The notes under the pieces: generated by a model | Database searches by the model: none | What the model saw: only the letters and a program-made list of their open reading frames with translations | What the model was told of the DNA's origin: nothing | Translations under genes and position numbers: made by a program | In this document: piece by piece, positions 1-13,353 of the stretch | Position numbering within the stretch: position 1 is the stretch's first letter | How the letters are laid out: each line of letters opens with the position of its first letter | Origin: an uncultured Bacilli bacterium | Lineage (GTDB): Bacteria > Bacillota_I > Bacilli_A > RF39 > UBA660 | Length of the DNA stretch: 64,000 nt | Assembly (NCBI GenBank): GCA_934096075.1 | Contig: CAKOLN010000003.1 | Span: forward strand, 26,184 to 90,183 | Reading direction: 5' to 3'

Positions 1-11
1 GTGAAAATTAA

Positions 12-338
12 ATGAATGGTAGTTACTACAAAAGCCCATTATTTCCAAACGAACCAATCTATGAAAGAGATACTGCAGTACCTAACCAAAATAATGACTT
101 ACCAATGGAACAAAGTTACATAGAAAATATACTAAGACTTAATAAAGGAAGAAAAGCAACAATATATGTAAGTTTTCCTGATTCCATAAATTGGAAAGAT
201 AAAATATTTACTGGAATAATTGAACAAGCAGGAAGAGATCATATCATATTAAGTGATCCTGAAACTGGAAAATGGTATATGATATTAATGATATACTTAG
301 ATTATGTTGAGTTCCAAGATAAAATAAACTACAAATAA
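12..338 (+). CDS. gerQ: Spore coat protein GerQ-like (C-terminal Spore_GerQ domain)
   Basis: 108 aa; the C-terminal motif ENILRLNKGRKATIYVSFPDS...WKDKIFTGIIEQAGRDHIILSDPETGKWYMILMIYLDYVEF matches the conserved GerQ/YwdL core from memory. An in-frame TAA lies immediately upstream, so the ORF starts at 12. A hairpin plus T-run terminator sits at about 340-366. Confidence 0.6.
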   Translation: MNGSYYKSPLFPNEPIYERDTAVPNQNNDLPMEQSYIENILRLNKGRKATIYVSFPDSINWKDKIFTGIIEQAGRDHIILSDPETGKWYMILMIYLDYVEFQDKINYK

Positions 339-480
339 GGTATCTTAAATGATACTTTTTATTTTGAAGAACTAAAAATCGCACTCTTGTGAATTAATTC
401 GTGAGTTAGATTTTTCCTTTTTTGTTTCTAAAAGTATTTATTTTTATGCTTACATATGGTATGATTGTTATGGTGGTAAT

Positions 481-876
481 ATGATTATTTCCAAAGGAAG
501 AGGATATGTATATGGTATAGAGTACCATATAGTATTTTGTACTAAATATCGTAAAAAAATAATAACCGATAGTGTAAAAGATTCACTTTTTCAAATAATT
601 ATATCATTATCTCAAGAAATGGATTTTAAAATAATAGAAATTAATACAGATTTAGACCATATTCACTTGTTAATTAGTTGTAAGCCTCAGCATTATATAC
701 CTACTATCGTAAAAAGATTAAAAGGTACAAGTGCAAGACTATTATTTAAATTATATCCAGAATTAAAAAAAGAATTATATGGTGGACATATGTGGAATCC
801 TTCTTATTTTGTTGCTACTGTTAGTGATACACTAGAAGATAATATTAAAGAATATATTTCTAATCAGGGGAAGTAG
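481..876 (+). CDS. tnpA: IS200/IS605 Y1 (HUH) transposase TnpA
   Basis: 131 aa; the HIVFCTKYRKK motif, the HUH-type HIHLLIS motif and a C-terminal catalytic Y region (WNPSYFVATVS) are typical of IS200-like TnpA. Confidence 0.85.
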   Translation: MIISKGRGYVYGIEYHIVFCTKYRKKIITDSVKDSLFQIIISLSQEMDFKIIEINTDLDHIHLLISCKPQHYIPTIVKRLKGTSARLLFKLYPELKKELYGGHMWNPSYFVATVSDTLEDNIKEYISNQGK

Positions 877-1968
877 GTGTTATTTATGGAGTATACTTAT
901 AGTTTTAGAATTTATCCTAATGAAGAGCAAATTGTTTTAATTGCTAAAACTTTTGGATGTTGTAGATTTATCTATAATTATTTTTTAGACTATTCTAATA
1001 ATAATGGCTATAGTTCAAAGTATACAAATAATAATACCTGTAATAGAGAGCTAAAAGTAGAATATCCTTGGCTTAAAGAAGTGGATAAGTTTGCTATTAC
1101 TAATACTATTTATAATTTAGATAATGCTTATAAAAGATATATAAACAAATTAGGTGGTAATCCTAGATTTAAAAAGAAAAATAAGGGAGAATCTTATCAA
1201 ACTAATTATACTAATAATAATATAGAAGTATTAGATAATTACATTAAATTACCTAAATTAGGTAAAGTACTCGCTAAAGTTCATAGAAAAGTAGAAGGTA
1301 CTATTATTAATGCTACAATAAAAAAATATAGTAATAATAAATATAAAGTAATGATATTAGTTAGAAAAGAAATTAAAAAGTTAGAAACTAATAGTTATAT
1401 AGTAGGAATAGATATGGGAGTTAGTAATTTTGTTCATGATAGTTCTAATAATATATATAATGCTCCTAAAGAATTAATGAATACTTATGATAAAATAGGT
1501 AGATTACAAAAAAGTCTTTCTTTAAAAAAGAAAGGCAGTAATAATTATAAGAAAATAGAAAATAAGATTAATAAACTATATGATAAATGTAATAATGTTA
1601 GAAATGATTTCTTACATAAATTAAGTACTAGTATTATAAACGAAAACCAAGTTATAGTAGTAGAAGATTTAAATGTTAAAGAAATGTTTCAAAATAAGAA
1701 TATAGCCAAAGTACTTGGAGATATATCTATATCTAAGTTTATTAATATGTTAGAATATAAAGCAAAATGGTATGGAAGAAAATTAATAAAGGTTGGTAGA
1801 TATTATCCATCTAGTCAGTTATGTAATAACTGTGGTTATCAAAATAAAAAAATAAAAGACTATAGTATAAGATCTTGGCAGTGTCCTAGATGCGATAGTG
1901 TACATGATAGAGATTATAATGCTGCGAACAATATACTAGATAAAGGAATAGAATTATTACTTATCTAA
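877..1968 (+). CDS. tnpB: IS605 OrfB / TnpB RNA-guided endonuclease (RuvC-like plus Zn finger)
   Basis: 363 aa; RuvC-I (VGIDMGV), RuvC-II (VVEDLNVKEM) and a C-terminal zinc finger (CNNCGY...CPRCDSVHDRDYNAANNI). It is full length with no frameshift. Confidence 0.85.
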   Translation: MLFMEYTYSFRIYPNEEQIVLIAKTFGCCRFIYNYFLDYSNNNGYSSKYTNNNTCNRELKVEYPWLKEVDKFAITNTIYNLDNAYKRYINKLGGNPRFKKKNKGESYQTNYTNNNIEVLDNYIKLPKLGKVLAKVHRKVEGTIINATIKKYSNNKYKVMILVRKEIKKLETNSYIVGIDMGVSNFVHDSSNNIYNAPKELMNTYDKIGRLQKSLSLKKKGSNNYKKIENKINKLYDKCNNVRNDFLHKLSTSIINENQVIVVEDLNVKEMFQNKNIAKVLGDISISKFINMLEYKAKWYGRKLIKVGRYYPSSQLCNNCGYQNKKIKDYSIRSWQCPRCDSVHDRDYNAANNILDKGIELLLI

Positions 1969-2130
1969 TTAATTATATATAGGGTAGGAACTATCCGAGT
2001 TTATGTCTCTTTACATTAATAATAGTATTATTAAATGGAGAAAATTCTAATAGTGATATTAGAAGCATGCGATATTAAATCGTGTGAGGTTCACAATAAA
2101 TGTAAACTAACAATATTTGTTAATTCAATG
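1850..2130 (+). ncRNA. Putative omegaRNA/reRNA of TnpB, derived from the tnpB 3' end plus the IS right end
   Basis: Inferred from established TnpB biology, in which the guide RNA scaffold overlaps the tnpB 3' end and the right end. A structured right-end region with hairpins is present. Not directly demonstrable from sequence alone. Confidence 0.3.
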
Positions 2131-2157
2131 AATTCAATTATGTGATACAATACTATT

Positions 2158-3384
2158 ATGAAGAAGTTTTTTAAAAGTTTAATAATATTTATTTTAATGT
2201 GCCCTTTAATAACAAAAGCATTTGAAATTGAAGGATTATATTCTAAAAATGTCTTAGTCTACAATTTAGATGAAGATAAGATTTTATATAATGTAAAAAG
2301 TGAAGATAAAATTAGCATAGCAAGTCTTACAAAAATAATGACTACAATAGTCGCTATAGAAAATATTGAAAATTTAGATGAAACCATAACTATAACTTCT
2401 AAAATGTTAGATGACATTCCATATGATGCATCAACCGCAGGATTAGAAGTTGGAGATAAGGTAACTTATAAAGATTTGTTATATGCAAGTCTTATACCTT
2501 CTGGAGCTGATGCAACTCAATCATTGGCAGTTTCGATCTCAGGTTCAGTATCTAAATTTGTAGAACTTATGAATAATAAAGCAAAAAGCTTAAATATGAA
2601 AAACACTCACTTCGTTAATACTACAGGACTAGATGCAGAAGGACATTATTCAACACTAGAAGACATACTTATTTTAATAAAATATGCCTTAAAAAATGAA
2701 ACATTTAAATCAGTATTTGAAACAAAATCATACACAACTACAAACAATATTAAACTTAAATCAACATTAGATTATTATAATAGAGATTTTAATTACAACA
2801 TATCTTATGTATTAGGATCAAAAACAGGTTTTACTGATGATGCAGGCCTATGCCTATTAACTTTATCAAATGTAGATGACACAAATATCATTACAATAAC
2901 AGCTAATGCACCCTATTCTTATGGTAACTCTAAAAACATGATGGACCTAAACACAATAAAAACATCATTAGATAAATCATTTGAAAAAGCAACACTCATA
3001 ACTGAAAACGAGCAACTAATAGTATTAAATACGAAATATGCTAAAGAAAAAGAAATAAAAATAACATCTCCTTCCGAAATAACTAAATATGTAGAAAAAC
3101 CTTTCAATAAAGATAAAATAAAAACTGAATATACTGGAGAAAAAATAATATCATACAAAACAGAAAAAGGTACTAAACTTGGAGAAATAAAAATAAGTTA
3201 TAATGATGAATTAGTAGATATAATTGAAGTTAAATTAGATAAAGATTTACACTTTAGTTTATGGGTATTTATTAAAGATAATATATTGCTAATCACTATA
3301 GTAATCATAGTATTTCTAATGCTTCTATTAATAATTAGAAAATCTAAAAAGAAAAGAAAGAGACTAAGAAAAATGAGACGATAA
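2158..3384 (+). CDS. D-alanyl-D-alanine carboxypeptidase (PBP5/DacB-type serine peptidase S11) with C-terminal TM anchor and K/R tail
   Basis: Signal peptide; SxxK motif (SLTKIM), SxN-like region and KTG motif (KTGFTDDAG); C-terminal hydrophobic segment followed by KKKRKRLRKMRR. Confidence 0.8.
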   Translation: MKKFFKSLIIFILMCPLITKAFEIEGLYSKNVLVYNLDEDKILYNVKSEDKISIASLTKIMTTIVAIENIENLDETITITSKMLDDIPYDASTAGLEVGDKVTYKDLLYASLIPSGADATQSLAVSISGSVSKFVELMNNKAKSLNMKNTHFVNTTGLDAEGHYSTLEDILILIKYALKNETFKSVFETKSYTTTNNIKLKSTLDYYNRDFNYNISYVLGSKTGFTDDAGLCLLTLSNVDDTNIITITANAPYSYGNSKNMMDLNTIKTSLDKSFEKATLITENEQLIVLNTKYAKEKEIKITSPSEITKYVEKPFNKDKIKTEYTGEKIISYKTEKGTKLGEIKISYNDELVDIIEVKLDKDLHFSLWVFIKDNILLITIVIIVFLMLLLIIRKSKKKRKRLRKMRR

Positions 3385-3398
3385 GTCTCTTTTATTAT
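3352..3398 (+). repeat. Direct repeat copy 1 (47 nt): stop codon plus rho-independent terminator hairpin of dacB
   Basis: aaaagaaagagactaagaaaaatgagacgataagtctcttttattat; 46/47 identical to 4397-4443. Contains a hairpin (gagact...agtctc) followed by a T-run. Confidence 0.8.
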
Positions 3399-3461
3399 AC
3401 TAAAACATATGATATAATTAATTTGAGACAAACTTAAAAGAGAAAAAATATAAAGAAAGGA

Positions 3462-4412
3462 GTGAAAGAAATGATTGATTTTTCTACTTCAATTGAAGAA
3501 TTAAATAGTTATAAGGGATCAGAAAAAAAGAAAACCTTAATTTACAATGGAAAAAAATATTTAGTAAAATTTCCAGATCCAATAAGAGAAAAAAATAAAA
3601 CAATTTCATATATAAATAATGCTTTTTCAGAATATGTAGGAAGCAATATCTTTAAATTACTAGGATTTGAAACTCAAAATACATTACTAGGTATTTATAA
3701 GTACAATAATAAAGACAAAGTAGTATGTGCTTGTGAAGACTTTACTGACAGTAACCACGAATTGTATGAATTTGAAAATCTTGCACTAAGTACTAATCCC
3801 GATAAAAAAATTCAAACTGAATTAAATGACATAATGGAAGTTATTAATTGGTTGACTAATTCAAAAGATATTAAATTGTATATAAATGATAATATAAAAG
3901 AAAAGTTTTGGAATATGTTTATCATAGACTGCTTAATTGGAAATACCGACAGACATAATGGCAACTGGGGATTATTGGTAAACACTAAAACTAAGGAAGC
4001 AAGTTTTTCACCAATATATGACTGTAGTTCTTGTTTAAATCCAATGTTAGATGATGAGGAATTATCTAAAATAGATGAAATAGAGTTAAAAAATTTAGCA
4101 ATTAATTCATATTCATGTCTTAAAGAAAATGGAAAAAAGATAAATTACATCACTTTCATAAAAAATGCAAAAAACGAAGACTGCAATAAAGCTTTATTAA
4201 GAGTATTTAAAAAAATTAACATAGAAGAAATTAATGACTTTATAGATAGTATAAAAGGAATATCAAAAACAAGAAAAAACTTTTATAAAAACATAATTAA
4301 TTATAGATATAATATATTAAATAAAATACATAAGAAAATAGTTAATTCAAGATATAAAGTAATTAGGGAATCTTATGATAAAATAAACATTGATAGAAAA
4401 GAAAGAGACTAA
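3462..4412 (+). CDS. HipA-like Ser/Thr kinase domain protein (HipA_C / CtkA / HipT-like, short form)
   Basis: 316 aa; the catalytic-loop motif CLIGNTDRHNGNWGLL matches the HipA_C GNxDxHxxN signature. No adjacent HipB/HipS-like small ORF. Own promoter (TGaTATAAT at about 3408-3420) and RBS AAAGGAG. Confidence 0.6.
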   Translation: MKEMIDFSTSIEELNSYKGSEKKKTLIYNGKKYLVKFPDPIREKNKTISYINNAFSEYVGSNIFKLLGFETQNTLLGIYKYNNKDKVVCACEDFTDSNHELYEFENLALSTNPDKKIQTELNDIMEVINWLTNSKDIKLYINDNIKEKFWNMFIIDCLIGNTDRHNGNWGLLVNTKTKEASFSPIYDCSSCLNPMLDDEELSKIDEIELKNLAINSYSCLKENGKKINYITFIKNAKNEDCNKALLRVFKKINIEEINDFIDSIKGISKTRKNFYKNIINYRYNILNKIHKKIVNSRYKVIRESYDKINIDRKERD

Positions 4413-4443
4413 GAAAAATGAGACGTTAAGTCTCTTTTATTAT
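4397..4443 (+). repeat. Direct repeat copy 2 (47 nt): terminator duplicated after the HipA-like gene
   Basis: aaaagaaagagactaagaaaaatgagacgttaagtctcttttattat. It is read in a different frame from copy 1, and here supplies the last codons and stop of the HipA-like ORF. Confidence 0.8.
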
Positions 4444-4546
4444 GTCTAATTCTATCAAATTTCAAAAAAATTCTAGTAATTTCCCCTATTTATGTGCTAT
4501 TATATATATACTAGCGGAGTATTGACTTAAAATTGTACCAAATCTT

Positions 4547-4575
4547 TCACAATTTGCAAATGCATAAAATTGTGA
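4547..4575. promoter_or_regulatory. Promoter of the rplI-dnaB operon with a 9-bp perfect inverted repeat (candidate operator)
   Basis: TTGCAA-17 bp-TGTGATATAAT (extended -10). The inverted repeat tcacaattt...(11)...aaattgtga spans the -35 and -10 elements. Confidence 0.5.
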
Positions 4576-4599
4576 TATAATATACTGACGGAGGATTTT

Positions 4600-5040
4600 A
4601 TGAAGATAATATTACTAGAAAATGTAAAAGGAACTGGAAAAAAAGATGAAATAAAAGAAGTTAAAGATGGCTTTGGAAATTTCCTTATAAAATCAAAAAA
4701 AGCAGTTTCTTATTCAGAAAAAAGTAAAGAGGTTCTAAAAACTCAATTAGAAAACAAAAAAGAAGAAGAAGACAGAATATATAAAGAAGCCTTAGAATTA
4801 AAAAGTAAGTTAGAAAAAACAAAACTAACTTTTAAAGTAAAAACTGGGGCTCAAGATAGAGTTTTTGGTAGTATAAGTTCTAAACAAATAAGTGAAGAAT
4901 TAAAAAAGAAAAACCTTAATGTAGACAAAAAAATAATAGATGCAGAAAACATAAATTCTCTAGGAATGCATTTAGTTAAAATAAAATTACATAAAAAAGT
5001 AACTGCCGAATTAAATGTAGAATTAAAAGGTGGTGAATAA
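4600..5040 (+). CDS. rplI: 50S ribosomal protein L9
   Basis: 146 aa; the N-terminal MKIILLENVKGTGKKDEIKEVKDGFGNFLI is typical of L9; RBS GGAGG. Confidence 0.9.
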   Translation: MKIILLENVKGTGKKDEIKEVKDGFGNFLIKSKKAVSYSEKSKEVLKTQLENKKEEEDRIYKEALELKSKLEKTKLTFKVKTGAQDRVFGSISSKQISEELKKKNLNVDKKIIDAENINSLGMHLVKIKLHKKVTAELNVELKGGE

Positions 5041-6390
5041 ATGGCAAGAAAAGAACCACAAAGTATTGAAGCAGAAATAAATGCTTTAGGATGTGCGTTC
5101 TTAAGTAAAAGTGCTTTAGACAAAGTATGTGAAGAATTAACCATGCCTATGTTTTACCTAGACGGTCATAAAAAAATATTTGAAGCATTATTAAATTTAA
5201 GAAGTACAGACACTGCAGTAGATATAACAACTGTAACTAATGAATTAGAAAGAACTAAATCACTTAGTTCAGTAGGCGGAATAGACTATTTAACTGAAAT
5301 AGTAAATTCAGTCGCAACACCTGCTAACTTAGAATACTACATAAAAATAATATTTGAAAAATACGTATTAAGATGTCTAATAGAAGAATCAACTAAAATA
5401 ATAGATGAATGCTATGATGAATCAGAAGATTTAAATTCTATAGTTGAAGATGCAGAAAAAAGAATTCTTGGAGTAAATAGTGATAGAATGATTAAAGATA
5501 TCAAACCTATTCAAGAAGTCTTAGTAAAAGCACAACAAGAAATAGAATCACTATCTAAAAATGGTGCAGACATAACAGGTGTACCTAGTGGATTTAAAGA
5601 CTTAGATAGAAGAACAGCTGGATTTCATGGCAATGAATTAATTATCTTAGCTGGTCGTCCAGGAATGGGTAAAAGTGCCCTTGCTATAAACATGGCAACA
5701 CATATGACAATAAATGCAAAAAAGTCAGTAGCCTTATTTAACCTAGAAATGGGAGCAACTCAAATAGTAAACAGAATGTTCTCATCCATTGGACAAATAG
5801 ATGGACAAAAACTAAGAACTGGTAGACTAGATCATATGGACTGGAAAAAATTTAACGAAGCATTAAGTCTACTAGCAGATACTAAGTTTTTTATAGATGA
5901 TACACCAGGAATAACAGTCGCAGAAATAAGAAGCAAATGTAGAAAATTAAAAAATAGTGATAAAGGTCTAGACTGTATAATAATAGACTACCTACAACTA
6001 ATAAGCAGTTCAAATAAGTACTCTGGACAAAGAACTAATGAGGTAAGTGAAATATCAAGAGACTTAAAAAAACTAGCAATGGAGTTAGAAGTGCCAGTAA
6101 TCGCCCTTGCACAACTATCTCGTGGTGTGGAACAAAGAGAAGACAAACGACCTTTAATGAGTGACTTAAAAGAAAGTGGCTCAATAGAACAAGATGCAGA
6201 TATTGTAATGTTCATTTATTGTGATGACTATTACAAATTCAAATCAAAAGAAAGACCTGCACTATCACCAACAGAACTAATAATTTCTAAACACAGAAGT
6301 GGTAGTACTGGTACAGTAGATTTAATTTTTGAAAGAGAACATGCTAATTTCAAAAATTATCTAAGAAGTGAGGAAAAAGAAAATGAATAA
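5041..6390 (+). CDS. dnaB: Replicative DNA helicase DnaB (DnaC in Bacillus nomenclature)
   Basis: 449 aa; Walker A GRPGMGKSA, RecA-like C-terminal domain, N-terminal DnaB domain; conserved synteny downstream of rplI. Confidence 0.92.
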   Translation: MARKEPQSIEAEINALGCAFLSKSALDKVCEELTMPMFYLDGHKKIFEALLNLRSTDTAVDITTVTNELERTKSLSSVGGIDYLTEIVNSVATPANLEYYIKIIFEKYVLRCLIEESTKIIDECYDESEDLNSIVEDAEKRILGVNSDRMIKDIKPIQEVLVKAQQEIESLSKNGADITGVPSGFKDLDRRTAGFHGNELIILAGRPGMGKSALAINMATHMTINAKKSVALFNLEMGATQIVNRMFSSIGQIDGQKLRTGRLDHMDWKKFNEALSLLADTKFFIDDTPGITVAEIRSKCRKLKNSDKGLDCIIIDYLQLISSSNKYSGQRTNEVSEISRDLKKLAMELEVPVIALAQLSRGVEQREDKRPLMSDLKESGSIEQDADIVMFIYCDDYYKFKSKERPALSPTELIISKHRSGSTGTVDLIFEREHANFKNYLRSEEKENE

Positions 6391-7846
6391 GAAAAGTATA
6401 TATTGGAGCTCAGTATTTGTAATCATACTAACTAGCCTAATATTTATACTTGGAACAGATAGAAAAAGTTATGATGAAAACCCTGAAACTGTTTATCAAG
6501 TATATCTAAACGGTCAAACAATAGGTGTCATCAAAAGTGAAGATGCCCTATATGACTTAATAGATAAAGAACAAAAAAATCTTAAAAAAGAATACAAAGT
6601 AAATAAAATATATGCTCCAATCGGACTAGAAGTAACTAAATTAGTAACATATGATAGTGAACTAGACGATGTAAAAGAAGTTTATAATAAAATAAAAGAT
6701 GAAGAACCATTTACTGTAAAAGGTTATGAAGTAACAATAACACATGATGAAAATAACATAGAAAAAATAAATGTACTAGATAAAAAGGACTTTGATACAG
6801 CAGTAGAAAATACAATAAAAGCTTTCGTAGATGAAACTGAATATGAAAAATACTTAAATGAAACTCAAGATGAAATAATAACAACAGGTTCAACTATAGA
6901 AAATATAAATATAAAAGAAAATATAACTATAAAAGAAAAATATCTAAGTACAGAAGACAAAATATATAGAGACGCAAATGAATTAAGTAGATACATGTTA
7001 TTTGGTACTGATGAAACTCAAGGAACACACATAGTAACCGCAGGAGAAACAATTAAACAAATTGCTGACGAATATGAACTATCAGTAAAAGAATTCTTAA
7101 TAGTTAACCCTGAAATAGTAAGTGAAAATGCATTATTATTTAACGGACAAGAAGTTAATGTAGGACTAGTAAAACCAATAATAAGTATTGTAGTAGAAAA
7201 TAATCTAGTTGAAGATAAAACAGTACCATATCAAAGTCAAACGAAATATGATAATAAATATGTGGTTGGTACAACATGGACAGAACAAACTGGACAAAAT
7301 GGTATCAGTAGAGTTGAATACTATACAGAAACAATAAATGGTGTAATAACTCAAGTAATACCATTAAGTACAGAAGTAATTAAACCAGTAGTAGATGAAG
7401 TAATAGTAAAAGGTGGTCTATCTATAAACTATGTAGGTGACACAGGTGCTTGGTATTGGCCAACAATAAGACCATATGTAATAACTTCATACTTTGGATG
7501 GAGAACAGACCCAATATCTGGAGAACATACATATCACCGTGGAATAGATATTTCCGGTACAGGTTATGGTTCACCAATATATGCTGCTCAATCAGGTACA
7601 ATCACTAGAATTGGATGGGCTGGAGACATGGGTAATTACATTTACATAGATCACGGAAAAGGATTCCAAACAATCTACATGCATTTAAGTGGTTTTGCAG
7701 ATGGAATGAGAAGTGGAGTTGCAGTAACTAAAGGAGAATTAATTGCATATATGGGAAGTACTGGATATTCAACTGGTACACACTTAGACTTCCGTATAAT
7801 GGCGAATGGTGTTTACATAGACCCACTAGGAGTAAAATATAACTAA
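6368..7846 (+). CDS. Membrane-anchored LysM plus M23 family metallopeptidase
   Basis: N-terminal TM; LysM-like segment (TAGETIKQIADEYELSVKEFLIVNPEI); M23 motifs HRGIDISG and HLDFRI. Confidence 0.8.
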   Translation: MRKKKMNKKSIYWSSVFVIILTSLIFILGTDRKSYDENPETVYQVYLNGQTIGVIKSEDALYDLIDKEQKNLKKEYKVNKIYAPIGLEVTKLVTYDSELDDVKEVYNKIKDEEPFTVKGYEVTITHDENNIEKINVLDKKDFDTAVENTIKAFVDETEYEKYLNETQDEIITTGSTIENINIKENITIKEKYLSTEDKIYRDANELSRYMLFGTDETQGTHIVTAGETIKQIADEYELSVKEFLIVNPEIVSENALLFNGQEVNVGLVKPIISIVVENNLVEDKTVPYQSQTKYDNKYVVGTTWTEQTGQNGISRVEYYTETINGVITQVIPLSTEVIKPVVDEVIVKGGLSINYVGDTGAWYWPTIRPYVITSYFGWRTDPISGEHTYHRGIDISGTGYGSPIYAAQSGTITRIGWAGDMGNYIYIDHGKGFQTIYMHLSGFADGMRSGVAVTKGELIAYMGSTGYSTGTHLDFRIMANGVYIDPLGVKYN

Positions 7847-8607
7847 TGAAAATCCATATACTAGGAAGTGGATCTAAAGGAAACTCTACATTTATAGATT
7901 TAGGAAACAAAAAAATCTTAATAGATGTAGGGTTTTCCTATAAACATATAAAAGAACAACTATCTAAAATAAACATAGATCCTAAAGAAATAGATGCTGT
8001 TCTAATAACCCATGACCATTCAGATCACACATATGGACTACCTGTATTTATAAACAAAGTTAACCCATTATTATATATAACTCCAGAAGTAGAAGAAGTA
8101 ATACTGAAAACACCTTACGAAAAAAGTATCTATTTAGGTGATGAATTATATATAGATGACGCTATGATAAAAGTAATACCTACATCTCATGATGCATTAA
8201 CATCAAATGGTTTTCTAATAGAAAAAAATAATGAATCTCTAGTATACATAACAGATACTGGTTACATAAATCAAAGATACTTTAAATTCCTACAAAACAA
8301 AACATACTACATAATAGAAAGCAACCATGATACCGAAAGATTAATAAAAGGAAGGTATCCAGAATATTTACAAAGAAGAATACTTAGTGATAAAGGACAC
8401 CTATCTAATGAATTATGTGCAGGTTATCTATCTAGATTTATCGGACCAAATACAAAAAAAGTTGTACTAGCACACTTATCAGAAGAAAATAATACAATAG
8501 ATTTAGCTTTAAACACAACTGAGTCAGTACTTAAAGAAAATAATATAAGTTTTTCAAACATAACATGTGCAAGTCAAACAGAATTAACCGAGGTAACTAA
8601 TGATTAA
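7846..8607 (+). CDS. MBL-fold metallo-hydrolase (YycJ/WalJ-like)
   Basis: 253 aa; HDHSDH motif; its position before rlmH matches yycJ-rlmH synteny in Bacilli. Confidence 0.75.
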   Translation: MKIHILGSGSKGNSTFIDLGNKKILIDVGFSYKHIKEQLSKINIDPKEIDAVLITHDHSDHTYGLPVFINKVNPLLYITPEVEEVILKTPYEKSIYLGDELYIDDAMIKVIPTSHDALTSNGFLIEKNNESLVYITDTGYINQRYFKFLQNKTYYIIESNHDTERLIKGRYPEYLQRRILSDKGHLSNELCAGYLSRFIGPNTKKVVLAHLSEENNTIDLALNTTESVLKENNISFSNITCASQTELTEVTND

Positions 8608-9037
8608 AATAATATGTATAGGTAAAATAAAAGAAAAATATCTAACAGATTTAATAAACGATTATCAAAAAAGAATAAACAAATATCATAAATTAGAAAT
8701 AATTGAACTAAAAGATTCCAACATAAATAATGAGAAAGAAGAAATACTTAAACATATAAAAACTTCTGATTACATTATATCAATGTGTATAGAAGGCAAG
8801 TTATTAACAACTTTAGAATTAAAAGATAAAATAGAAAGTCTTATGCTAAATGGTAACTCAAATATAACATTTATAATAGGTGGTTCTGATGGAATACATG
8901 ATGAAATAAAAAGACTAAGCAATGAATTAATATCTTTCTCAAAACTAACATTTCCTCATGGTTTATTTAGAGGGATACTATTAGAACAAATATATAGAAT
9001 ATTTAAAATAATGAATAATGAAACCTACCATAAGTAG
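8600..9037 (+). CDS. rlmH: 23S rRNA (pseudouridine1915-N3)-methyltransferase RlmH (SPOUT)
   Basis: 145 aa; YbeA/RlmH-like size and N-terminus (MIKIICIGKIKEKY...); synteny with yycJ. Confidence 0.7.
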   Translation: MIKIICIGKIKEKYLTDLINDYQKRINKYHKLEIIELKDSNINNEKEEILKHIKTSDYIISMCIEGKLLTTLELKDKIESLMLNGNSNITFIIGGSDGIHDEIKRLSNELISFSKLTFPHGLFRGILLEQIYRIFKIMNNETYHK

Positions 9038-9120
9038 GTTTTTACTTTTAAAATCATACTAGTTTATTTTAACCAAACATAATATAATATAAGTATAAAT
9101 AAAAAGATAAGGAGAACAAA

Positions 9121-9603
9121 ATGAAGAAAATATTCTTAATTGCAATTTGCATACTTATAATAGGATGTCAAAAAGAAGAAAATATTTATACTATAAAAGC
9201 AAACATTGAGGAAAATATTCTTAAGAATAAAGACTACAATAATTTAAGTTCATGTAAAATTGATGAAATCAATAATACAATAACTATAGAATTAATCAAT
9301 AATAGTGAAGAAGAACAAGAATGGTTTAAAAATAATATATCAAATTCAAATAAACTAATATTTAAGCAAGGAAAAGAAATTAAACAAGAAGAACTAACTT
9401 ATGTTTATAATTATATTAACGATTACATAAATTCAAATGGGCAAATAGAAAATTATACAGGTCATTACATAGATGAAATATGTAATAGTGTTGTAGTGAG
9501 TTTATTAGAAAATAACCAAAAACATCAAAATAATTTTAAACAAAACATAATTGATTCTAATCTAATAGAATTTAAAAAAGGAAATTATGGTATAGACCAA
9601 TAA
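9121..9603 (+). CDS. Lipoprotein, function unknown
   Basis: Lipobox LIIGC at residues 13-17; 160 aa, N/E/K-rich. Confidence 0.6.
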   Translation: MKKIFLIAICILIIGCQKEENIYTIKANIEENILKNKDYNNLSSCKIDEINNTITIELINNSEEEQEWFKNNISNSNKLIFKQGKEIKQEELTYVYNYINDYINSNGQIENYTGHYIDEICNSVVVSLLENNQKHQNNFKQNIIDSNLIEFKKGNYGIDQ

Positions 9604-9632
9604 CAAGTATCTACTCGAACTAGATACTTTTT
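9601..9632 (+). terminator. Rho-independent terminator (copy A), identical to 12382-12415
   Basis: taacaagtatctactcgaactagatacttttt: 8-bp stem agtatcta/tagatact, 7-nt loop, T-run. Confidence 0.8.
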
Positions 9633-9687
9633 AACTTGCTTAAAAAAATATTGTATTATATAATTTAAGTAGAAAGTAGGGAATGTA

Positions 9688-12384
9688 ATGAAAAAAATTA
9701 TTTATGTTTTAATGGGATTAATTATTATAATAAGTCCTAAATTTTTACAGGCAGAAATACCAGATGACTTTAAAAATTTACCAATTTATGAAAAAAATAA
9801 TAATTACTACATAGATGTAAATGTGGTAAATCCACAATATTTTATAGATAACTATTGCGTACAAGAAAATAAACAATGGAGTGACATTGAAAACTGTAGA
9901 GATCAAAAGTACTTTTTATTAATCAATATGCTTCAATCATCTCTTAAATTAGATGAAAATTATTTTTATAATGTTAACTCAACAGCTGAAACAATAACTA
10001 TTTATAATAAAGAAACAAGTACAGAGATAACAACATATTTAAATTTTAAGGATGCTGAAATAGCTATAGTAAAATCTTTAGCAACCTATAGAATAAATAA
10101 TAAAAACTATAGAAGTTATAATGTTTTACCAGCAATAAAATATACATTGGCATACAATGAAAACAAAAATAAAATATTATATAATCGCGAACTTAATACA
10201 ATTTTGTCTAAAAATGGAATGACAATCGAAATAGATAGTAATTTAACTAATTATCCAAAACAAATTAAGTATAATATATTAAAAAATGGTGTTATTTACT
10301 TTTCAGATTATATATATAGTGATTTTTATTACACCCTTCATGTTGAACCTATAACTTATGAAGAAAGACTAGATGAATTAAGTGATGAATACATAAAAGA
10401 AACCATATCAAAATTACTAAAAAACTATTTTAAAAATAGTACTATTACGATAGGAACATTAAATAGAGACACAAAACAATTAGCAATTACAATAGATTCA
10501 ATAGATTTTAATTTCAATTTAATAGTTGATAAAAATAAAATGTATGACTTTAATGAACATAACGAAACTTATTCTGACAATAACATTTATTTAGAAGATA
10601 TAAATAACCAATTTTCAGTAGATACAGCTTTTATAACAGAAGATGTAACTAATAAAGTAAAATTAACTAATATAAATATTGAAAGTGCCTATGAATTAAA
10701 GCTAAATGAATTAGAAAGTAAAAAAACAGTTACTAATTTTGATAATAATGTTATGATATACCTTCCAACTAATAAAGAAAAACTTGTTGGAGCCGAAGTT
10801 ACAGTTAATTACTACAAAGACTACTTATCAAAAGGTGAAAAACTTAAGGGGTCAATAGTTAATTATAACAATAAGACTTATGTAAAAATAGAAACAAATA
10901 AAGTTGGTATCTATGCTATAGATAATACACCTTACTTAGGAGATTCTTTAAAAGACTTACCAATAACTATAATTGATAATGATCATTTTCTAATAACATT
11001 TGATACGGTAGATCCAAAAATAATAGTAAAAGAAAGTCATATGTTTGATTTAACACCAGAATATAAAGAAAAAATATTTAAAGAGGCATATGTTTCAATT
11101 TATGATTCAACAACAGGAAATTATAAAGAAGTTACTGATCCTGATGAGAGAAAAAAAGTAATGACAGATGAATGGTACAACAAATATATAGAACAAGAAA
11201 AGAATGGTTATGTTAATTCAATAATAGATTTATATGTCAAGAAGGTTAACCCAAAAGCAGAAATTTTATACGCTTTAGCAAGTAACACACGCAATACGGA
11301 AATTTTATATACAAAACAATATAATAAAAAAGATTTTGAATCTGCTACAAATATACTTAATAAAATAAAAGATAAATATGAAACAAAAGGTTTAAGAGCG
11401 ATAAATTCAATTAGATTATATGGCGCACAAGATGCTGTCTTTGAAAATAATGATAAAGCACTTTATATATTTGATGATTTTAAAGAATATGTAATGTCAG
11501 TACCTGAAGAATATGACTTTGTATTTAGTATCGGTGGAACTGGTGGAGGAAACGGTGGCGGAGGAAATGAAGTAACCGTTGGAATTGTAAAAGATGGAAC
11601 ACTATTAAATGTTGGACATACATCATTTTCTTATGAATATTTTCTATATGTTGATAAAAAACAACCAGGAACAACTTTAGAAAAGGGACTAGAAATTCTA
11701 AAAAAATACTTCAAAAATTTACCTTTTGAATATAAGGAAGTAGAAGGATATAAAGATGATTGCTTAATAGATTACTCAGAAGAAGAATGTGGAGAATTCA
11801 TAGAATTAACAATAGACGGAAAATTTACATTAGCACTTATCAAAGAAAAAGAAGACTACAAAATAGAAGATAATTATGTAAGAAGTAATGATGAACATGT
11901 GGCTATAGAAAGTGATTCATACGATGTAGCACCGGATACAGTTGTTAAAAGCGAAAATGTATCTGATAACAAGGAATTAAAACACTTTGGTTTAGAAAGT
12001 GCATTCGATATCAAATTAATTCAATTAATAGGTGGAATATATAAAAAGAATATAGATGGAACTGTTACAGTGTACTTACCTACTATAAGAAAAAATATAG
12101 GAGAAAAAGTAAAAATCTATTATATAAAGGACGATTATACTATAGGAGAAACTTTAATAGGAGAAGTAGTAAAATATAATAACAAATATATGATTAAATT
12201 TGAAACAAATCACTTTAGTATATATGGCATAGAAAAAATGAATTCAAAAATTAATTCAGAAGAAATAGAAAATCCACAAACTGGGGATAATATTTACAAC
12301 TCATTTATTATACTAGTAACAAGCATACTATCCATATCGCTTATAATAATAAGCCAAATTAAAAAACAAAAAAATAACTATTAA
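9688..12384 (+). CDS. Large cell-surface protein with class B sortase-type NPQTG sorting signal
   Basis: 898 aa; signal peptide; internal Gly-rich GGTGGGNGGGGNE; C-terminal NPQTGD followed by a hydrophobic TM segment and the basic tail KKQKNNY, which is a canonical cell-wall sorting signal. NPQT(G/N) is the SrtB-type motif. Confidence 0.7.
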   Translation: MKKIIYVLMGLIIIISPKFLQAEIPDDFKNLPIYEKNNNYYIDVNVVNPQYFIDNYCVQENKQWSDIENCRDQKYFLLINMLQSSLKLDENYFYNVNSTAETITIYNKETSTEITTYLNFKDAEIAIVKSLATYRINNKNYRSYNVLPAIKYTLAYNENKNKILYNRELNTILSKNGMTIEIDSNLTNYPKQIKYNILKNGVIYFSDYIYSDFYYTLHVEPITYEERLDELSDEYIKETISKLLKNYFKNSTITIGTLNRDTKQLAITIDSIDFNFNLIVDKNKMYDFNEHNETYSDNNIYLEDINNQFSVDTAFITEDVTNKVKLTNINIESAYELKLNELESKKTVTNFDNNVMIYLPTNKEKLVGAEVTVNYYKDYLSKGEKLKGSIVNYNNKTYVKIETNKVGIYAIDNTPYLGDSLKDLPITIIDNDHFLITFDTVDPKIIVKESHMFDLTPEYKEKIFKEAYVSIYDSTTGNYKEVTDPDERKKVMTDEWYNKYIEQEKNGYVNSIIDLYVKKVNPKAEILYALASNTRNTEILYTKQYNKKDFESATNILNKIKDKYETKGLRAINSIRLYGAQDAVFENNDKALYIFDDFKEYVMSVPEEYDFVFSIGGTGGGNGGGGNEVTVGIVKDGTLLNVGHTSFSYEYFLYVDKKQPGTTLEKGLEILKKYFKNLPFEYKEVEGYKDDCLIDYSEEECGEFIELTIDGKFTLALIKEKEDYKIEDNYVRSNDEHVAIESDSYDVAPDTVVKSENVSDNKELKHFGLESAFDIKLIQLIGGIYKKNIDGTVTVYLPTIRKNIGEKVKIYYIKDDYTIGETLIGEVVKYNNKYMIKFETNHFSIYGIEKMNSKINSEEIENPQTGDNIYNSFIILVTSILSISLIIISQIKKQKNNY

Positions 12385-12415
12385 CAAAGTATCTACTCGA
12401 ACTAGATACTTTTTT
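12382..12415 (+). terminator. Rho-independent terminator (copy B), duplicate of 9601-9632 including the preceding TAACAA
   Basis: ttaacaaagtatctactcgaactagatactttttt. Confidence 0.8.
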
Positions 12416-12486
12416 CCTTCTTAATATAGAAATAAACTACATTATTTGATATAATGTATCTGTATAAGAATAAAAAGGAATAAAAT

Positions 12487-13353
12487 ATGAATAAGAATAA
12501 AAAGAATATAATAAATTTATTTATGTTTATAATAGGTATAACAATAGTATCAATAACATTTAATACTTTGTGTGTTCCAAAAAACATAGTAATTGGAGGA
12601 GTTAGTGGAATAGCAGTAATATTTAATTACTTATTCAAAATAGATGTTACGACTACATTACTTATTGGAAACATATTATTAATAGTAATGGGAGTATTAG
12701 TACTAGGATTTAAAGATACAATACCAAGTATCATTGGCTCATTCATATATACATTAGGAGTATATCTAACTGAAAATCTAATAACAGTACAAATTGATTC
12801 AATCTTTCTTAACATAGTAGCTGTAGGAGTATTATATGGAATAGGATGTACCTTAATATATCTAGCAGGTTATTCAACAGGTGGAACTGACATACTTGGA
12901 ATAATATTTCAAAAAAAATTAGGGTATCCATTAGGAAGAGCATTACTAATAATAAACATACTAATCTTAATATTTGGTACAGTAGTATTTGGACCTGAAA
13001 TGCTAATAATAGGACTTGTTATAAGATACTTAGAAAGCAGAATAATAGATAACTTCCTAATTGGAATAAGTGACTCTAAAGTATTATTCATAAATACTGA
13101 AAAAGAAGAAGAAATAAATAATTATATAATACATGAAATAAAAAGCGGAACAAGTGAAATAAAAATAAAAAGTGGTTATAAAGGAATACATAAAAATTTA
13201 TTAATGTGTGTAGTACCTACAGAAAAGTATATGCTATTAAAAGAAGAAATAAAGAAAATAGACAAAGATGCTTTTATAACTGTACTAGATGCATATGAAG
13301 TATATGGTGGTACAAATAGGTATAAACTACCATTACATGACCTAAGAATATAA
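12487..13353 (+). CDS. YitT-family membrane protein (DUF161 plus DUF2179)
   Basis: 288 aa; multiple TMs and a C-terminal soluble domain, as in B. subtilis YitT/YpjC family proteins. Confidence 0.6.
   Translation: MNKNKKNIINLFMFIIGITIVSITFNTLCVPKNIVIGGVSGIAVIFNYLFKIDVTTTLLIGNILLIVMGVLVLGFKDTIPSIIGSFIYTLGVYLTENLITVQIDSIFLNIVAVGVLYGIGCTLIYLAGYSTGGTDILGIIFQKKLGYPLGRALLIINILILIFGTVVFGPEMLIIGLVIRYLESRIIDNFLIGISDSKVLFINTEKEEEINNYIIHEIKSGTSEIKIKSGYKGIHKNLLMCVVPTEKYMLLKEEIKKIDKDAFITVLDAYEVYGGTNRYKLPLHDLRI

Follow-up and report, generated by a model that had tools for sequence, protein, structure and literature searches.

Insertion of a stand-alone CtkA-family kinase gene, with duplication of its target, between dacB and rplI of an uncultured gut species of Bacilli

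The 64-kb stretch of DNA analysed here (the window) comes from an uncultured gut lineage of Bacilli/Firmicutes with ~25% G+C, kin of Clostridium sp. CAG:628. Between its dacB and rplI genes stands a kinase gene flanked by two copies of a 49-nucleotide (nt) direct repeat, and this locus is an insertion with duplication of the target. Probably, a relocated solo kinase gene of the CtkA family was inserted by long target duplication in the ancestor of the species. The mode of insertion has been known since 2000 from genome comparisons, though it is mechanistically unsolved, and it recurs in the clade for unrelated genes; what is new is the finding of a kinase, and of other cargo outside restriction-modification, in a known insertion mode. 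Positions are those of the window unless a label such as L015 stands with them; these labels denote the related loci and assemblies fetched for comparison.

The duplicated target and its empty sites

The repeat is the longest local direct repeat of the whole window. Its two copies start 1045 nt apart and agree at 48/49 positions; a preliminary description of this DNA had given 47 nt with 46/47 matches, and the repeat proves somewhat longer. A pattern made from its 40-nt core has two exact occurrences in the window and none in 100 shuffles. As RNA, the repeat folds into a 10-bp stem (3356-3365/3384-3393) with an 18-nt loop (-10.3 kcal/mol, z = -3.65), and a terminator scan finds an inner 5-bp hairpin with a T-run in both copies.

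The same sequence is put to two uses. Copy 1 comprises the final 35 nt of dacB, with the stop TAA at 3382-3384, and the terminator hairpin. Copy 2 is read in another frame, as had been described, and comprises the final five codons of the kinase gene, the stop TAA at 4410-4412 and the terminator. One repeat is thus translated as the end of DacB (...RKRLRKMRR, stop) and as the end of the kinase (...DRKERD, stop).

The insert proper is 996 nt long and consists of a promoter-like box, a ribosome-binding site (RBS) and the kinase open reading frame (ORF) without a stop of its own. The putative promoter, the extended -10 box of the preliminary description, is the sequence TGATATAAT at 3410-3418, and GGAG follows at 3459-3462, upstream of the ORF; the box does not appear in the list of a consensus promoter scan because it has no -35 box. 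In a circular form of the insert, AACATTGAT would be joined through a single 49-mer to ACTAAAACAT, and at an empty site GTCTAATTC would follow the single 49-mer. The kinase gene, whose G+C equals that of the flanks, is the sole gene of this insert of <20 kb: the only other ORFs within it are two of 41 and 57 amino acids (aa), antisense and of low complexity, there is no mobility gene of any kind, and no terminal inverted repeats are seen at its ends. An Rfam scan of positions 1-13000 gives no match, with no known-family RNA antitoxin, riboswitch or TnpB-associated RNA as a candidate. The coordinates are collected in Table 1.

Table 1. Coordinates of the features discussed, in window positions
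Feature	Position	Strand	Remarks
gerQ	12-338	+	ORF annotation
IS200/IS605 tnpA	481-876	+	between gerQ and dacB
IS200/IS605 tnpB	877-1968	+	between gerQ and dacB
dacB-like D-Ala-D-Ala carboxypeptidase	2158-3384	+	Pfam Peptidase_S11 (E 1.3e-46) and PBP5_C; upstream target gene
Repeat copy 1	3350-3398	+	dacB 3' 35 nt and terminator hairpin
Inserted segment	3399-4394	+	bounded by both repeat copies
CtkA-family (HipA_C fold) Ser/Thr kinase, 313 aa	3471-4412	+	ATG at 3471; Pfam, PDB profile, AlphaFold2/Foldseek
Repeat copy 2	4395-4443	+	gives the kinase RKERD, stop and terminator; at ancestral terminator position
rplI (ribosomal protein L9)	4600-5040	+	Pfam Ribosomal_L9_N/C; downstream target-side gene
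dnaB	5041-6390	+	directly after rplI
Second case, repeat copy 1	9601-9637	+	stop of 160-aa ORF (9121-9603) and terminator hairpin (-8.2 kcal/mol)
Second case, inserted gene	9688-12384	+	898-aa orphan surface protein; signal peptide, NPQTG sorting signal
Second case, repeat copy 2	12382-12419	+	stop of 898-aa ORF and same terminator hairpin

Is the arrangement peculiar to this species, or is it shared by all relatives? The order dacB-kinase-rplI, together with the repeat, recurs, slightly varied in sequence, in five further independent assemblies of this species (L001, L002, L013, L014, L057), and an arrangement found in six independent assemblies is no assembly artefact. A DnaB scan with one genome per species gave 44 loci from metagenome-assembled genomes (MAGs) of uncultured gut Bacilli/Firmicutes, Clostridium sp. 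CAG:628 included. The gene order rplI-dnaB-M23 is common to all 44, and the kinase is found between dacB and rplI only in two of them, those of the two genomes of conspecific level. There is no kinase between dacB and rplI in seven related species (L015, L022, L024, L025, L027, L028, L056), and the arrangement is therefore not one common to all relatives. In six of these species (L022, L024, L025, L027, L028, L056), rplI follows dacB directly after ~150-180 nt, and in each of the six the basic C-terminal tail and stop of dacB overlap dacB's own terminator hairpin. A dacB end of the type seen in copy 1 is therefore the native one, although the stop-overlapping terminators of the relatives differ in sequence from the 49-mer. 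The nearest other species, L015, has a DnaB 92% identical to that of the window and is likewise kinase-free; its homology to the window restarts right after the T-run of copy 2, which therefore occupies the place of the ancestral terminator. With such empty sites in related genomes, the event is an insertion with target duplication, and the ~1-kb cassette of the preliminary description is borne out by them.

Some indication of the age of the insertion can be had from the strains. Copy 2 differs from copy 1 at 1-4 positions across strains, none of them in the 10-bp stem, and synonymous divergence between strains reaches ~12%. The insertion is therefore older than the sampled strains, though not by much.

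The surroundings are variable in other respects. The dacB|rplI spacer is a hot spot that holds varied cargo in L016, L018, L021, L023, L031, L032, L033 and L053, and the rlmH|yitT spacer is a second one (L020, L021, L022, L030, L032, L033, L053); a RelB/YafQ toxin-antitoxin pair (L023 3805-4434), XRE-type helix-turn-helix (HTH) genes, lipoprotein genes and a ClpB-like ATPase are among the cargo of the two spacers. A search of nine relatives found no flanking terminator duplications around other dacB|rplI inserts, which means that inserts at this spot do not generally have such a repeat. The insertion sequence (IS) of the IS200/IS605 type listed in Table 1 varies between strains: the window and L014 carry it, whereas L001, L002 and L013 do not and have gerQ ~100-130 nt from dacB.

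A stand-alone kinase and its mobility

The Pfam HipA_C domain is matched over residues 19-194 (E 1.9e-10) with 41.2 bits, above the gathering cut-off of 30.5, and the motif GNTDRHNGNWG, from which a HipA_C-type kinase had been proposed, is present. The catalytic loop D-x-H-x-x-N is represented by D160, H162 and N165 and the Mg-binding residue by D184 (PIYD184C), all invariant in a family alignment of 15 sequences; the two Asp residues, D160 and D184, align with D155 and D179 of CtkA. When the PDB is searched with the family profile, CtkA is found (3AKJ_A, E 4.6e-58, 200 bits, query residues 15-286 against chain residues 18-285). The AlphaFold2 (AF2) model of the kinase has a predicted local distance difference test (pLDDT) value of 77.6 and a predicted template-modelling (pTM) score of 0.81, and its top Foldseek matches are again CtkA structures (3AKK, 3AKL and 3AKJ), with TM 0.68-0.77, 35-36% identity and E values down to 3e-18. 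The next matches are HipA and HipT, at TM ~0.4 and 12-14% identity. The 313-aa protein aligns end to end with the 325-aa CtkA; a domain scan finds HipA_C only, with no HipA N-terminal subdomain and no HipS surrogate; and the NCBIfam model of the YjjJ toxin gives 20 bits against a cut-off of 401. Judged by sequence and modelled fold, the kinase is a CtkA-family protein and not an orthologue of HipA, HipT or YjjJ. The kinase fold itself is conserved both by the HipA_C hidden Markov model and by the likeness to the CtkA fold. The usual length in the family is 285-299 aa, and the window protein, at 313, has ~17 extra residues from the insert and 5 from the repeat.

A homologue search returns 4050 matches. 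Among the 4050, the top 120 show 67-74% identity to the window protein and 77% identity among themselves, and within the clade the kinase family is about as well conserved as L9 or the M23 peptidase. The ORF is intact in 6/6 same-species assemblies, with ratios of non-synonymous to synonymous polymorphism (pN/pS) of 0.06-0.22. An intact ORF with such low ratios argues that the gene is functional at its new site, where the substitution pattern indicates that it is under purifying selection.

There is no adjacent antitoxin or partner gene (HipB HTH, HipS or HIRAN) at the window locus, where the neighbours are dacB and rplI, nor a conserved small partner gene in any of the ~90 related loci examined. 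The solo state is the norm for the whole family, with its hundreds to thousands of homologues. The preliminary description had been right that no HipB- or HipS-like ORF accompanies the kinase, the small antisense ORFs being all else that the insert encodes; its further suggestion of a solo-toxin-like kinase is not supported, given the CtkA affiliation, the solo state as family norm, the purifying selection and the host-like base composition. The gene appears to be a conserved stand-alone gene kept by selection, not a stranded toxin.

The same gene is found in many places. The ~90 kinase loci were fetched via exact-protein look-ups and a metagenome scan, and kinase lineages were defined as clusters at 95% identity with both neighbours visible (n=40). 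These 40 lineages have 31 upstream and 32 downstream neighbour families, and no two share a neighbour pair (40 distinct pairs). The context of dnaB is constant by contrast: in essentially all 44 loci, some with identity as low as 55%, rplI lies upstream and the M23 peptidase gene, a gene of the metallo-beta-lactamase (MBL) fold and rlmH lie downstream. Against this background of conserved gene order, the mobility of the kinase stands out as unusual. Its context in the window and in the ~90 related loci is chromosomal, among housekeeping neighbours, and no link to a secretion system is seen. One kinase sub-group, with mutual identity of at least 86%, brings a promoter and 5' untranslated region of ~80 nt into differing contexts; across 53 distinct loci, the RBS alone is a general conserved element upstream of the kinase.

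The commonest neighbour is lysS, the gene of class II lysyl-tRNA synthetase (LysRS), which is upstream of the kinase in 8/40 lineages (loci L003-L012, L058, L060, L061, L067, L081, L113, L128, L129, L144 and L147). Other upstream neighbours occur in a few cases each: tilS (four loci), an aldolase and a polysaccharide deacetylase. In many loci the kinase starts 14-47 nt after lysS, too close for a partner gene to fit between them; over the lysS-linked loci listed above the gap is 11-60 nt. The site after lysS is the likeliest ancestral home of the kinase. What might the kinase act upon? The known substrates of HipA and HipT are aminoacyl-tRNA synthetases, and for Caulobacter HipA2, LysS is a reported but disputed target (Gerdes et al. 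2021, PMC8262856). With the lysS linkage added, LysRS as substrate is a lead and not a result. The recurrent link nevertheless offers a concrete substrate hypothesis for an understudied kinase family.

Relatives of the kinase on mobile DNA are distant. A scan of viral contigs found none, a search of PHROGs gave only a weak match to a family of unknown function, and phage and plasmid records hold only distant CtkA-like proteins, at 35-41% identity. The plasmid proteins are from Campylobacter fetus, Selenomonas and Megamonas (NZ_CP007000.1, NZ_CP017043.1, NZ_CP048628.1, NZ_CP059434.1), and the phage-record protein is in MT839556.1, an unannotated 8-kb faecal 'Bacteriophage sp.' To our knowledge, the CtkA-like kinase family has so far been known only from one Helicobacter pylori protein; the present comparison places a large, well-conserved, stand-alone family of such kinases in human gut Firmicutes.

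Recurrence around unrelated genes

The second-longest local repeat of the window flanks another gene. It has a perfect 28-nt core (9605-9632), or 32-37 nt counting the stop codon, and it encloses the gene of an 898-aa protein. Two proteins among 5.8 billion match this one, both from the same species and the same locus, and that search found no donor. The L014 assembly, whose DnaB is 99% identical, shows the same-species empty site exactly: the hairpin is there once and the 898-aa gene is missing; L013 likewise has no 898-aa gene and a single hairpin copy. Such an exact same-species empty site exists for this second case only (L014), not for the kinase. In L013, moreover, the 160-aa ORF is deleted between short direct repeats, TTTTAAC.AAACATAAT (L013 11980-12100), so that about the last 26 of its codons remain; the window counterparts of these deletion repeats are at 9066-9083 and 9533-9550.

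A screen for repeat-flanked inserts, which covered all fetched sequence (1.39 Mb), yields further cases. In L092 (3853-6211), two perfect 33-nt copies of a terminator hairpin enclose a 2.3-kb segment made up of the kinase and a Mur-ligase/FolC-like gene, and the stop of the second, ligase-like ORF sits in the loop of copy 2. In L144 (4380-5960) and L147 (4800-5880), lysS, dut and the kinase each end AAG TAA in the 5' arm of a near-identical terminator, and a near-identical promoter follows each such terminator (49/51 matches in L144); dut lies between lysS and the kinase in L144 and is absent from L147. Upstream of rplI in L047 (3472-4565), a Fic/DOC-family gene (3706-4389) has a flanking duplication of ~98-115 nt that spans terminator, promoter, RBS and the first ~45 nt of rplI, and in the upstream copy a 1-nt deletion frameshifts the leftover fragment of the rplI start. 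The repeat of L075, 42 nt long, lies over an RBS region and has no terminator. Taken case by case, the repeats measure 49, 28-33, 33, 63, ~98-115 and 42 nt, and their sequences differ. No recombinase, terminal inverted repeats or shared end motif were found in the repeat-flanked inserts examined.

One repeat was set aside: the kinase of L064 is flanked by a 53-nt repeat, of which a further copy, inverted, stands between the flanking ones, and the end of the contig falls within the repeat. The sequence concerned, GGTCGGAGCTTTGTTTTTTCAAAAGTAACAAATTTCTTTCTCCGAGGGAGG, is ~50 nt long and richer in G+C; it stands in direct orientation at 1-53 and 1288-1340 and inverted at 1167-1205 of L064, with short tandem repeats downstream, which suggests a dispersed repeat element of the L064 genome.

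The insertion footprint is thus general and not specific to the kinase. A search for other genes with duplicated terminators had been proposed in the preliminary description, and such genes are found, the 898-aa gene in the window and more in relatives. Its notion of an unusual, terminator-targeted mechanism fares less well: the same architecture surrounds unrelated genes, with repeats of 28 to ~115 nt that do not always hold a terminator, and the phenomenon is a published one. Most repeats do contain a terminator. In these compact, AT-rich genomes, however, the spacers are little more than terminator and promoter, and any duplication of 30-100 nt that spares the neighbours will therefore include them; 'terminator-targeted' is not established as a description.

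Origin of the duplication and comparison with known systems

How could one short target come to stand on both sides of an insert? On the reading that we regard as probable, a fragment of ~1 kb, with promoter, RBS and a kinase ORF cut just before its stop, would have entered the short dacB-rplI spacer in an ancestor, and a 49-bp target, made up of the last 35 nt of dacB and the intrinsic-terminator hairpin, would have ended up on both sides of it. Copy 1 would still end and terminate dacB, and copy 2 would give the kinase its five C-terminal codons, a stop and a terminator, both terminators being predicted ones. The kinase itself would be conserved by vertical descent in the clade, with many changes of chromosomal position along the way. 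The start might have been two single-strand breaks, on opposite strands and either side of the hairpin-forming target, or an equivalent template switch in replication. The break would then capture a DNA fragment that had probably been acquired by uptake or by copying from another place; fill-in synthesis would copy an overhang of 28 to ~115 nt on both sides; and selection would keep only those events that spare the stop, terminator and promoter of both flanking genes. Within this overall model, offset single-strand breaks or a template switch are a tentative choice of mechanism, held with less than even confidence.

Several points weigh against the account. The break-and-fill-in step is pure inference. 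The kinase empty sites all come from other species with non-identical dacB ends (dacB of L015 is 73% identical), and since no identical empty site of the same species is at hand, the exact pre-insertion sequence is only inferred. The high identity between the copies could partly reflect gene conversion and not recency. A donor locus for the kinase was not found, the nearest non-conspecific homologue being 74% identical and lysS lying outside the window; the junctions therefore have no source to be compared with, and microhomology is not assessable. Finally, codon 186 (4026-4028) of the window allele encodes Ser, where 120/120 homologues, other strains of the species included, have Gly. The site belongs to the D-C-G motif beside the Mg-binding Asp, at a DFG-like position, and S186 may impair activity; the allele could be hypomorphic or owe this codon to a sequencing error.

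A broader synthesis would join these observations as follows. The clade would gain and move single genes mainly by recombinase-free breakage around hairpin-forming intergenic signals, which are duplicated in the process, so that the incoming gene would at once have a stop, a terminator and in some cases a promoter; the CtkA-like kinase would be the most frequent passenger, semi-selfish in character, with lysyl-tRNA synthetase marking its ancestral home and being its likely substrate. As a whole, this synthesis is doubtful.

Can the same footprint arise with no dedicated insertion process? A tandem duplication might join the terminator end of dacB to the upstream region of a kinase gene elsewhere on the same replichore, and a later deletion might remove the stretch from the 3' end of the kinase gene to the last 35 nt of the second dacB copy. 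Such a course explains an insert without a recombinase, the lost kinase stop and repeats that vary from 28 to ~115 nt, and deletions at short repeats do occur in the species, as the loss of the 160-aa ORF in L013 exemplifies. It requires, however, two independent events per case, with one deletion end falling within tens of nt of a gene end each time; in the five terminator-covering inserts examined, what is left over is the hairpin with or without a promoter and no larger gene fragment; and for the 898-aa orphan gene, neither a second copy nor a relative is found among 5.8 billion proteins. Duplication followed by deletion is consequently unlikely.

It is quite improbable that the gene is a recent arrival from outside that encodes a HipA-type toxin, has been parted from its antitoxin and was brought by a mobile mechanism with terminators as its specific targets. 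The HipA_C domain with its intact catalytic motif would suit a toxin, as would a match to the candidate defence gene PDC-M03A (E 2.4e-32) and the RelB/YafQ pair at the dacB|rplI hot spot of L023, and the unique G186S change would fit an attenuated toxic kinase. Yet the protein belongs to the CtkA family and not with HipA/HipT, falls far below the YjjJ cut-off (20 vs 401 bits) and has no HIRAN partner. The family is solo wherever examined, often co-operonic with lysS or tilS, and shows housekeeping-level conservation, purifying selection and flank-like G+C. Genes for a surface protein, a Fic protein and a ligase, and also dut, have come in by the same type of insertion, and the site is not a terminator every time.

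Duplication of a 3' gene end together with the adjacent sequence is the classical footprint of integrase-mediated insertion, and site-specific or Campbell-type integration has to be weighed for this reason. A small circle with the kinase and one 49-mer, an attP-like substitute for the dacB 3' end, would be integrated by an integrase acting in trans or by RecA at the 49-bp homology, after the manner of a cis-mobilizable element (CIME), an integron cassette or a dif module. In a contig of 1027 nt, L117, both ends lie in the repeat that flanks its kinase, and the contig could be taken for a 956-nt circle; the circle was rejected because the same sequence is found in the 59-kb chromosomal contig L144, of which L117 is a mere fragment. 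No integrase or recombinase is found in or near the insert, with ORFs annotated from 1-14 kb, and each repeat is unique within its own locus, the 49-mer having two copies in the window. The repeat is different in sequence and length in every case, which would demand a different recombinase each time and therefore makes site-specific integration unlikely. No relative of the kinase was found, in addition, on viral contigs, and its plasmid and phage relatives reach <=41% identity. With no attC-like R''/R' motifs visible in the sequence, the integron attC and dif-module readings were rejected on sequence grounds, and integration of this kind is very improbable.

An IS-type element of the IS30 or IS200/IS605 kind is scarcely credible as the source of the duplication: the MAGs are related to Mollicutes and an active IS200/IS605 copy lies 1.4 kb upstream, but the insert has no terminal inverted repeats, no end motif is common to the cases, the window region examined has no IS30 transposase, duplications reach ~115 nt, IS200/IS605 elements make no target duplication, and the resident copy is absent from L001, L002 and L013, which have the kinase insert. 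The end hairpin of the resident element, GGGTAGGAACTATCC, is unrelated to the repeat. An IS200/IS605-derived element resembling the palindrome-associated transposable elements (PATE) was rejected on this ground too, and also because the empty sites keep one hairpin and the repeat holds the coding end of dacB.

Long target duplication thus stays the probable origin of the kinase insertion, and several known systems can be set beside it. CtkA (JHP0940) of H. pylori is carried on tfs3, an integrating conjugative element (ICE), and is described as a pro-inflammatory kinase that requires a type IV secretion system for its activity (PMC5536186). The kinase described here resembles CtkA (3AKJ/3AKK/3AKL) in full-length homology, fold, a size of ~300 aa and a core kinase without the HipA N-terminal subdomain; the catalytic and Mg-binding Asp residues are the same, and neither has an adjacent antitoxin gene. 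Unlike ICE-borne CtkA, it is chromosomal in gut Firmicutes, among housekeeping genes and with no secretion-system link in the loci seen. With HipA, HipT and HipH (YjjJ), it shares the Pfam HipA_C superfamily and the catalytic motif, and HipH/YjjJ is also monocistronic. It differs from HipA and HipT in its low identity (12-14%) and TM value (~0.4) and in having no N-terminal domain, HTH, HipB, HipS or HIRAN. No mention of CtkA was found in the full text of the HipA phylogeny of Gerdes et al. (PMC8262856). The PDC-M03 system of PADLOC consists of two genes, for HipA-like and HIRAN proteins (PMC13245101); the kinase matches PDC-M03A models (best E 2.4e-32), and no HIRAN gene is adjacent here or in the related loci examined.

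With respect to the target, IS1630 of Mycoplasma fermentans, a member of the IS30 family from a related low-G+C lineage, reportedly duplicates inverted-repeat, terminator-like targets of variable length and sequence when it inserts. IS1630 encodes a transposase, has ends of its own and makes duplications of 19-26 bp; the present inserts have neither transposase nor terminal repeats.

The closest parallel is insertion with long target duplication, which was found by Nobusato et al. 2000 in H. pylori and extended to several phyla by Furuta, Abe and Kobayashi 2010 (PMC2853133). The published cases, most of them from naturally competent Proteobacteria, concern restriction-modification genes that have long, variable duplications around them and come with no other mobile element; the direct repeat exceeds 30 bp and is present once in the genome with the empty site. 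One example has 46-bp repeats that overlap 15 bp of the 3' end of HI0105, and a gene fusion at a junction was reported (PMC2853133). The authors of that work suggested DNA breakage by the restriction enzyme as a common cause (PMC2853133). The cargo here cannot cut DNA, which argues for a process that belongs to the host or the target. Finding this footprint around such cargo makes the restriction-enzyme explanation less convincing and directs attention to target structure or general repair. The clade also offers fresh, short, hairpin-centred events, some with same-species empty sites, that are common enough for study. In common with the published insertions, the present one has no mobility gene, a repeat of >30 bp (49 nt here), a length and sequence specific to the case and an overlap with a 3' gene end. 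It departs from them, together with the other inserts of the clade, in its cargo, which is a kinase, a sortase-anchored orphan, a dUTPase, a Fic protein or a ligase and not restriction-modification genes; in its host, an uncultured lineage of gut Bacilli; and in its short duplications, of 28 to ~115 nt, that are mostly centred on terminator hairpins.

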